Source of the DNA: a virus
Lineage: Duplodnaviria > Heunggongvirae > Uroviricota > Caudoviricetes
IMG/VR virus record: IMGVR_UViG_2609459839_000004
Direction: 5' to 3' (one strand)
DNA: 18,695 nucleotides
Shown: positions 12,432 through 13,201 of the stretch, in pieces
Position numbering within the stretch: position 1 is the stretch's first letter
Layout of the letters: each line of letters begins with the position of its first letter
Notes under the pieces: generated by a model
The model's database searches: none
Told to the model about the DNA's origin: nothing
The model's input: only the letters and a program-made list of their open reading frames with translations
Translations under genes and position numbers: made by a program

Positions 12432-12875
12432 ATGGCCTTTTTATTGAATAAAAGTGATATGGCCTCCTCCATCGGTATCTCTGTTCAGGCATTTGATAAA
12501 TGGGGCGTTCCTCCTGTTGAACGTCGGGGGAGGGAAGTTTTATATGACGTTAAAACTGTACTGGAGATAGATCGCGAGCGGCGACAACACAATCAGAGAA
12601 CACCTGATGACGGGGGAGAACTGGAGGAAAGGCTGCTTCGGGCCAGAGCTGAACTGACAGAAGAACAGGCTGTAGCTCAAAAACTTAAAAATCAGGTAAC
12701 CGAAGGTAAGCTCATCGATTCAGACTTCTGCGTTTTCGCCCTCAGCAAACTGGCGATGGCATTGTCCAGTACGCTTGATTCCATTCCGTTATCCATGCAG
12801 CGACAGTTATGGCGTGTGAAGAAGCGAAAGGTCGTGAACAACTGGCGGCAACGCTGGCGGCGATGCCGGAGATGA
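12432..12875 (+). pseudogene. Terminase small subunit (Nu1-like), truncated and running out of frame into a C/Nu3 remnant
   Basis: ATG 12432 with GGAGAGGA SD; N-terminal HTH region and DFCVFALSKLAMALSSTLDSIPLSMQRQLW align with lambda Nu1; the Arg-rich tail RVKKRKVVNNWRQRWRRCRR looks like out-of-frame translation; no terminase large-subunit gene follows. Confidence 0.6.
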
Positions 12876-13201
12876 CGGTGGAAAAAGCACGCCCGATCCT
12901 GGCGGCTGCACCACTGGCGGATGCCGGGCCCTCACTTCGTGATCAGATCATGGCCCTGGATGAGGCAAAAGGGGCAGAAGCGCAGGCTGAAAAACTGGCG
13001 GCCTGCCCGGGAATGACCGTGGAGAACGCCCGGGCTGTGCTGGCTGCGGGATCAGGTAAGGCCGAACCGGTCTCTGCATCCACAACCGCCCTGTTTGAAC
13101 ATTTCATGGCGAATCATTCACCGGCAGCGGTGCGGGGTGGCGTGTCACAGACGTCAGCAGACGGTGATGCGGACGTGAAAATGCTCATGGCCATGCCATG
13201 A
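12809..13201 (+). pseudogene. C-terminal remnant of head protease/scaffold (C/Nu3-like)
   Basis: Ala-rich ORF ending FEHFMANHSPAAVRGGVSQTSADGDADVKMLMAMP immediately upstream of D, the position of the Nu3 C-terminus in lambda; portal and protease N-terminal regions absent. Confidence 0.5.

Follow-up and report, generated by a model that had tools for sequence, protein, structure and literature searches.

The stretch of DNA analysed here, 18,695 nucleotides of IMG/VR virus record IMGVR_UViG_2609459839_000004 (the window, here taken at its full length), carries a two-base junction at positions 12807-12808. Very probably a lambdoid prophage in ompW has here lost 4,911 bp of its late operon, most likely by RecA-independent illegitimate joining, with two truncated genes left as debris. 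At this point the gene for the small terminase subunit (TerS; Nu1 in lambda) is joined directly to the 3' end of the protease/scaffold gene (C/Nu3 in lambda). A preliminary description, made from the letters alone, had already placed a fusion of Nu1 to the tail of C/Nu3 between 12790 and 12880, and the mapped junction falls inside this interval. The window was found to match NCBI contig LGMR01000013.1 (assembly GCA_001912105.1) at 100% identity over 16.4 kb; LGMR00000000 is listed as a colonization-factor-negative enterotoxigenic Escherichia coli (ETEC) from Kenya, strain 401900, whose SPAdes assembly has 343x coverage (PMC5216030). The right end of the window lies some 300 bp short of an ompW fragment that marks the right end of the prophage and is followed by yciE, yciF, yciG and trpA/trpB. 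Given these neighbours and its gene order, which starts with a copy of IS150 at the left end, the element is a lambdoid prophage sitting in ompW, with head genes of the phage 21 type.

The whole window was compared with 5,426 complete E. coli genomes. One of these, that of strain E275a, carried the same prophage at the same ompW/yciE/trp locus, and this locus (NZ_CP035865.1, referred to as L002) served as our reference. The E275a prophage covered 91% of the window at 99.7% identity, spread over 34.6 kb, and blastn resolved the alignment into five collinear blocks (Table 1). The gap between the first two blocks corresponds to a copy of the insertion sequence (IS) IS2 with a 5-bp target duplication, present in E275a only (window 6018-6022; L002 7627-8957), and the three further gaps are segments of 4,911, 5,686 and 6,657 bp that are gone from the window. 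As a collinear intact copy exists at the same chromosomal site, we consider the reading of the 4,911-bp gap, as a loss that joined Nu1 to the tail of C/Nu3, proven. E275a is in effect an essentially identical intact parent, which makes the pair useful for studying how E. coli deletes the late genes of its prophages.

The alignment of Nu1 and its neighbours that the preliminary description had called for could thus be carried out against an intact copy. At the first junction, window position 12808, in codon 126 of Nu1, is joined to the Met372 codon of a 501-aa protease/scaffold protein, with the two bases TT common to both parental flanks. The segment lost (L002 15765-20675) comprised the last 43 codons of Nu1, the complete gene A for the large terminase subunit (TerL), the W homologue, the portal gene B and the first 371 codons of the S49 peptidase/scaffold gene. 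When the late proteins of E275a were searched against the window by tblastn, D, E, FI, FII, Z, U and I were found 100% intact, while A, W, B, V, G, T, H, M, L and lom gave no match anywhere in its 18.7 kb, and neither did the N-terminal 371 codons of C; for TerL and portal this covers the prophage from IS150 to about 300 bp short of the ompW fragment. The loss of TerL, W, portal and most of the protease, as first described, was therefore borne out, and no TerL or portal gene was found in another position in the window. Junction 1 is an ordinary, base-resolved case of prophage decay in ETEC 401900 and its close relatives, and one more allele of a common process.

On the left of the junction, the ORF (open reading frame) at 12432-12875 encodes 147 aa: 125 native codons followed by 22 out-of-frame codons and a stop at 12873-12875. 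Over the native codons it was identical to the 168-aa TerS of E275a (WP_001405844.1 type), so that the end of Nu1 homology near codon 125 was correctly located from the sequence, and the arginine-rich nonsense noted after it proved to be gene C DNA read in the wrong frame. This peptide, LWRVKKRKVVNNWRQRWRRCRR, also occurs as an alternative-frame ORF in two metagenome scaffolds (L014 and L017) in which gene C runs well upstream of the point of junction 1. The stub matched the Pfam family Phage_Nu1 (PF07471) over profile positions 4-148 of 164 (E 9e-14), compared with 4-163 for the intact parent, and together with its alignment to the TerS proteins of lambda and phage 21 this identifies it as of the lambda type. 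A PDB sequence search (E<=1) returned weak matches to chains of TerS DNA-binding domains (6hn7_B, 1j9i_A and 7lw0_A). Aligned with lambda Nu1, the breakpoint falls after residue 139 of 181, and the part lost corresponds to lambda residues 140-181. The C-terminal 40 or so residues of the small terminase have been proposed as its TerL-binding domain (PMC9026076). By this alignment to lambda, the deletion removed the putative TerL-binding C-terminus, and the last 43 codons have been replaced by 22 out-of-frame ones. The stub is also out of the usual context of a TerS gene, with cosN kept upstream but no TerL coding sequence in the window; its start retains a strong Shine-Dalgarno sequence.

The Nu1 of this prophage is 31% identical to gp1 of phage 21 and 38% identical to lambda Nu1. 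Window 12300-12806, which spans this Nu1 type and its cosB region, had no megablast match in 50,697 phage records, yet a 1-kb query across the junction matched 1,913 of the 5,426 complete E. coli genomes, the best matches being to this Nu1. Prophages appear to be the sole known source of this packaging-specificity type. A second truncated form of this Nu1 (P0004), 142 aa long and departing from it after codon 120, was present on seven contigs. In the three places shown (L029-L031) the contig ended about 24-35 bp past the stop of the ORF, a pattern that fits an IS insertion, five codons away from where the window breaks, rather than a deletion.

On the right of the junction, the ATG at 12809 is Met372 of the parental protein, and all 130 residues of the ORF that it opens were identical to residues 372-501 of E275a WP_159382461.1. 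The ORF ends in DGDADVKMLMAMP, 36 bp before D, and so has the position of a scaffold C-terminus, as was proposed from the sequence; it is not an intact unrelated gene. That proposal, which labelled it the tail of C/Nu3, holds for the C-terminal sequence and does not extend to a complete Nu3. Phage 21 has an analogue of Nu3 in its nested scaffold gene 6, which is 200 codons long and is annotated with its own ribosome-binding site (M81255). The corresponding GGAGG and ATG of E275a lie at L002 20455-20468, 210 bp inside the deleted segment, and the remnant is therefore without the first 70 of the 200 scaffold codons (including repeat box Tri1), the start codon and the Shine-Dalgarno sequence. No Shine-Dalgarno sequence was seen in the 25 bases before 12809, and the internal start with its own ribosome-binding site is gone. 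The S49 domain is likewise missing, as PF01343 covers residues 146-293 of the parent and the remnant begins at 372; a Pfam search with the 130 residues returned no domain. The right breakpoint falls just where the Tri2 box is annotated to begin (M81255 5682/5683). We regard this as a coincidence, since its partner on the left is in Nu1 and has no more than 2 bp in common with it. Both leftover ORFs are most likely non-functional debris, and the genes called here as a 'terminase small subunit' (147 or 182 aa) and as a 130-aa hypothetical protein are best read in this way.

Because the sequence comes from a draft assembly of short reads (SPAdes, 343x; PMC5216030), we considered whether the junction could be an artefact of assembly or scaffolding, in which a chimeric contig collapses repeats. 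The diverged Tri repeats of the scaffold region do cause N-gaps in some metagenome scaffolds, with spurious calls of the 130-aa ORF. However, the sequences joined here have only 2 bp in common and offer no repeat that could be collapsed. Moreover, the exact fusion protein was found on three contigs of three NCBI assemblies from two accession series (OKU09789.1 from strain 401900, and EYE25632.1 and EYE37935.1, both listed as E. coli 1-110-08_S1_C3), and an independent Logan assembly of SRR1186308 matched window 12190-18151 at 100%, across junctions 1 and 2. An artefact is therefore most improbable. We hold it to be just as improbable that the junction is a natural mosaic boundary and the ORF at 12809 a small scaffold gene of the lineage, intact and encoded separately. 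Lambdoid phages are mosaic, and the exact 130-aa protein has been called as a gene on several other contigs (L014-L018), but these calls, which were also examined as candidates for an independent small gene, arise from N runs inside an upstream-extending gene C or from contig ends. The ORF of the window starts at an internal methionine of the 501-aa protein with no Shine-Dalgarno sequence, and its flanks are collinear with, and 99.7-100% identical to, a single intact prophage at the same site. In addition, in none of the 5,426 complete genomes do Nu1 and the C tail lie within 1 kb, and a recurrent hotspot at this point was rejected on the same ground. Junctions 2 and 3 were likewise found in this form in none of these genomes, and neither the JGI metagenome contigs nor the GTDB species representatives contained an exact copy of a 35-mer over junction 1.

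A further reading accepts the deletion and differs on the Nu1 stub, which on this account would still bind cosB and oligomerise but could not bind TerL, acting as a dominant-negative TerS or in the manner of the Rpp proteins of phage-inducible chromosomal islands (PICIs). Rpp proteins are TerS-like winged-helix proteins of 135-153 aa that are without a TerL-binding domain and are encoded just downstream of cos (PMC9026076). The stub resembles the Rpp of Gram-negative PICIs in size (147 aa), in its position after an intact cosN and in its missing C-terminus: the breakpoint removes almost exactly the 42-43 residues proposed to bind TerL, leaving the DNA-binding and oligomerisation parts, and the start retains its Shine-Dalgarno sequence. 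Next to an intact cos, such a protein would interfere with or redirect the packaging of a co-resident or superinfecting phage with a compatible TerS; were this the case, the stub would poison or redirect packaging of a helper phage and would illustrate how a PICI Rpp could evolve from a truncated terminase. Against this, the likeness came about by an accident of truncation, and the C-terminus of the stub, unlike that of Rpp, consists of 22 frameshifted codons. No Rpp chain was recognised in the PDB sequence search (E<=1), the matches being TerS or, by name, unrelated proteins, and the stub has neither a recognisable sequence relation to Rpp nor a PICI context, lying instead among lambdoid genes in a decaying prophage that has two random-looking deletions elsewhere as well. 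Three near-identical assemblies and one read set were the only places where the junction was found, and its absence from the complete genomes, JGI metagenomes and GTDB representatives gives no sign of spread or selection. We consider an active stub very improbable, with debris the preferred reading, although a cos beside a TerL-blind TerS stub would be a cheaply testable candidate for packaging interference.

With TerL, portal and protease gone, the element would be expected to carry out no cutting at cos, to form no portal-containing proheads and to have no autonomous packaging; V through L and most of J are also gone, so that no tails would be made. These consequences follow from established lambda biology. 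The earlier statement that the element cannot package DNA holds for autonomous packaging and not as a blanket claim, because cosN is intact and because some defective lambdoid prophages of O157 Sakai are still induced and, aided by co-resident prophages, packaged and passed on (PMC2669165). With lambdoid gene order at a chromosomal site and essential morphogenesis genes missing, the element has the make-up of a defective lambdoid prophage. Given two more deletions of the same style in the tail genes, its sequence marks it as a decaying, non-particle-forming prophage. It should be scored as defective, being without terminase large subunit, portal, protease, tail tube and tape measure.

We next turn to how the deletion arose. 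Since the joined sites share TT only, with no repeat or hairpin, RecA-independent illegitimate recombination at microhomology is the most likely process. There was no further similarity in the flanks within 45 bp on either side, and no longer homology, direct repeat or Tri-box similarity was found between the joined sites. Likewise no hairpin or unusual structure was found at the six breakpoints of the three deletions (z-scores -0.3 to +0.8). Two routes may be envisaged: a double-strand break may have been resected and its ends joined at microhomology through RecBCD/LigA alternative end joining, or the segment may have been skipped by replicative template switching. Alternative end joining in E. 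coli involves resection by RecBCD and sealing by LigA at 1-9 nt of microhomology, with 1-3 nt in every sequenced event of one study (10.1101/605246). No Chi site was found in either orientation in the late region of the parent (L002 13.5-40.6 kb); a break there would therefore be resected with no RecA loading, and such a region fits unrestrained degradation by RecBCD and losses on the kilobase scale. For the same reason, Chi sites as end points of resection were rejected as what positioned the breakpoints. In a simulation on the parent sequence, 16% of random junctions had an overlap of at least 2 bp, giving about 0.004 for three of three.

Several points weigh against this account as a whole. 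The joining mechanism is deduced from the junction sequence alone, an overlap of 2 bp would occur by chance at a single junction about 10% of the time, and the breakpoints have neither a hairpin nor longer homology to explain their position. The status of the stubs as non-functional debris is an inference, and the absence of TerL and portal holds for the prophage from IS150 (window 1-1396) rightward. Lastly, the deleted segments share a CCC start that random resection and end joining do not predict.

This last point concerns all three deletions. Each junction has an overlap of exactly 2 bp (TT, TC and TA), and each deleted segment of the parent (starting at L002 15765, 24310 and 31716) begins with CCC right after the overlap, with T at position -2, so that the left breakpoints read TT|CCCGG, TC|CCCTGG and TA|CCCGAA. 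CCC occurs in the region at a frequency of 0.0096, and three sites would have any one trimer in common at a fixed offset with a probability of 3.6e-4; the pattern was, however, spotted post hoc and in three junctions. A protospacer adjacent motif (CC) of a CRISPR (clustered regularly interspaced short palindromic repeats) system or a restriction site was set aside as a likely source, as the three sites have no full recognition sequence in common and the direction of degradation by Cas3 would not fit. It might instead be that the three deletions were not separate break-and-join events but one complex replicative event of fork stalling and template switching, similar to microhomology-mediated break-induced replication (MMBIR), in which synthesis of the + strand halted three times ahead of a run of C and was each time primed anew, on 2 nt of homology, at a site 5-6.7 kb downstream. 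This rival bears on how the junction arose and not on what it is. Besides the uniform overlaps, the T-N|CCC left breakpoints and the low probability of a shared trimer, several observations would suit a single event: the fusion proteins of junctions 1 and 3 were recorded on three contigs each, the longest being the same for both, and have two assemblies in common; no intermediate was seen; between the junctions and beyond them, the window and E275a are 100% identical; and the independent deletions of strains 300709, TOE17 and SJ7 do not show the CCC signature. On the other hand, there are three data points only, the pattern was spotted afterwards, the breakpoints have no structure-forming sequence, intermediates may have been missed through sparse sampling of the lineage, and no process in E. 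coli was documented here that stalls specifically before CCC. We therefore regard a single event as a possible but less likely origin than separate illegitimate joinings; if it did occur, the T-N|CCC signature would be the mark of one template-switching event with a sequence-specific stall.

The head operon of phage 21 (1-2-3-4-5/6-shp-7 in M81255, equivalent to Nu1-A-W-B-C/Nu3-D-E of lambda) has the same gene order, and from the junction rightward the DNA of the window is 94.9% identical to it. The E275a protease/scaffold protein is 97% identical to gp5 of phage 21. The annotation of that phage includes the nested scaffold gene, complete with its ribosome-binding site, as well as the three Tri boxes, and its cosN is the same as in the window. 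By comparison with phage 21, the window is without genes 2, 3 and 4 and codons 1-371 of gene 5, and its Nu1 type and cosB region differ. The closest textbook case of decay is DLP12 of E. coli K-12 (ybcV-ylcI-nohD-aaaD'-tfaD), which has the same DUF1398-DUF3950-Nu1 neighbourhood followed by a deletion of head and tail genes. In DLP12 a full-length Nu1 homologue (nohD) is kept and one large deletion runs from the start of terminase A to the tail-fibre assembly gene, leaving a terminase A pseudogene fragment fused to the tail-fibre assembly genes, whereas the window has three separate deletions of 4.9-6.7 kb and keeps D, E, FI, FII, Z, U, I and part of J. In the pool of defective lambdoid prophages of O157 Sakai, too, morphogenetic genes have been hit by deletions and IS insertions.

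The related prophage of strain 300709 (NZ_CP025903.1) agrees in its ompW site, in its 168-aa TerS (WP_001405844.1) and in its flanking genes, and its late region is also deleted. There, in contrast to the window, Nu1 is intact and a single independent deletion with other breakpoints runs from gpA (at L002 17662) to a tail-fibre gene; the resulting fusion (L019, NZ_CP025903.1 1548418-1552641) is in frame, encodes 1,407 aa and is annotated as 'terminase gpA endonuclease subunit'. Two junctions, TerL'-Z and U'-K', are present in strain TOE17, and one, V'-K', in strain SJ7. In the independent deletions of the window (V' to K'), TOE17 (U' to K') and SJ7 (V' to K'), the right breakpoints lie within about 20 bp of each other in gene K and the left ones differ; strains DLI.5a and AST46 gave near-identical two-piece matches to TOE17. 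These breakpoints in K (window 16440-16470, L002 29995-30013, L027 4097-4102 and L028 4681-4686) fall in the stretch GGTCACCGGCTTTTACCGGGTGCCCCTG, which may be a deletion hotspot; its local fold z-score, -0.32, is unremarkable. 'Escherichia phage 204576' (CP025907.1), whose match from record position 1690 had suggested a shared right breakpoint, was rejected: the record, which is rich in frameshifts, begins inside the portal gene and has the full C region.

Table 1 Features of the window, their counterparts in the E275a ompW prophage locus (L002) and the genes lost at junction 1
Feature	Window position	L002 position	Strand	Details and basis
Deletion junction 1	12807..12808			2-bp microhomology TT common to both parental flanks; 4,911 bp gone; blastn overlap and three-way display
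Deletion junction 2	16441..16442			V codon 5 to K codon ~159; 5,686 bp gone; microhomology TC
Deletion junction 3	18161..18162			J after ~212 codons to tail-fibre-assembly remnant; 6,657 bp gone; microhomology TA
Nu1 (small terminase), native codons 1-125	12432..12806		+	DNA-binding and oligomerisation parts; Pfam, E275a identity
Out-of-frame Nu1 tail	12807..12875		+	LWRVKKRKVVNNWRQRWRRCRR; 22 codons (11 R or K) and stop; translation
3' remnant of C/Nu3-type protease/scaffold gene	12809..13201		+	codons 372-501 of 501; last 130 of 200-aa nested scaffold
Repeat box Tri2	12806-12916			mapped from phage 21
Repeat box Tri3	12947-13060			mapped from phage 21
cosN	12204..12215		+	GGGCGGCGACCT; exact match; flanking bases as at phage 21 cos
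D, head decoration gene, intact	13238..13585		+	tblastn 115/115 identical; Pfam HDPD
Collinear block 1	1397-6022	3001-7626		99.6% identity
Collinear block 2	6018-12808	8958-15764		99.7% identity
Collinear block 3	12807-16442	20674-24309		100% identity
Collinear block 4	16441-18162	29994-31715		100% identity
Collinear block 5	18161-18695	38371-38905		100% identity
Nu1 codons 126-168				lost at junction 1; last 43 codons
Terminase large subunit gene A		15866-17794		lost at junction 1; complete gene
W homologue		17778-17984		lost at junction 1
Portal gene B		17981-19573		lost at junction 1
S49 peptidase/scaffold gene, codons 1-371 of 501		19563-21068 (gene)		lost at junction 1
IS150 copy	1-1396			gene order, leftmost
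DUF968, RusA, Q antiterminator				after IS150
Ser/Thr kinase and PP2C phosphatase pair, DNA methyltransferase				next in order
Three tRNA genes, iraM, holin/lysozyme/Rz lysis cassette, DUF1398 and DUF3950 genes				next in order
cos, Nu1', 130-aa ORF, D, E, FI, FII, Z, U, K fragment, I, J fragment				order of the late region

The window begins inside the IS150 copy, whose transposase ORFs of 173 and 283 aa recur in more than 25,000 blocks of the collection, and this element abuts the prophage where similarity to E275a begins (L002 position 3001). Just downstream of Q, at window 4323-5827, a eukaryote-like Ser/Thr protein kinase gene (Pfam Pkinase) lies adjacent to a PP2C phosphatase gene, and the pair is possibly a phage-exclusion or regulatory module. 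The IS2 of E275a separates the phosphatase gene from a 65-aa ORF, so that private lesions are present in both copies of the prophage. Upstream of the lysis cassette, at window 7494-7743, is a cluster of three tRNA genes, identified by ARAGORN as Met(CAT), Arg(TCG) and Arg(TCT), the first of which is annotated by RefSeq as tRNA-Ile in E275a. Near this cluster, on the - strand at window 8033-8368, is an anti-adapter gene of the iraM/PmrD family.

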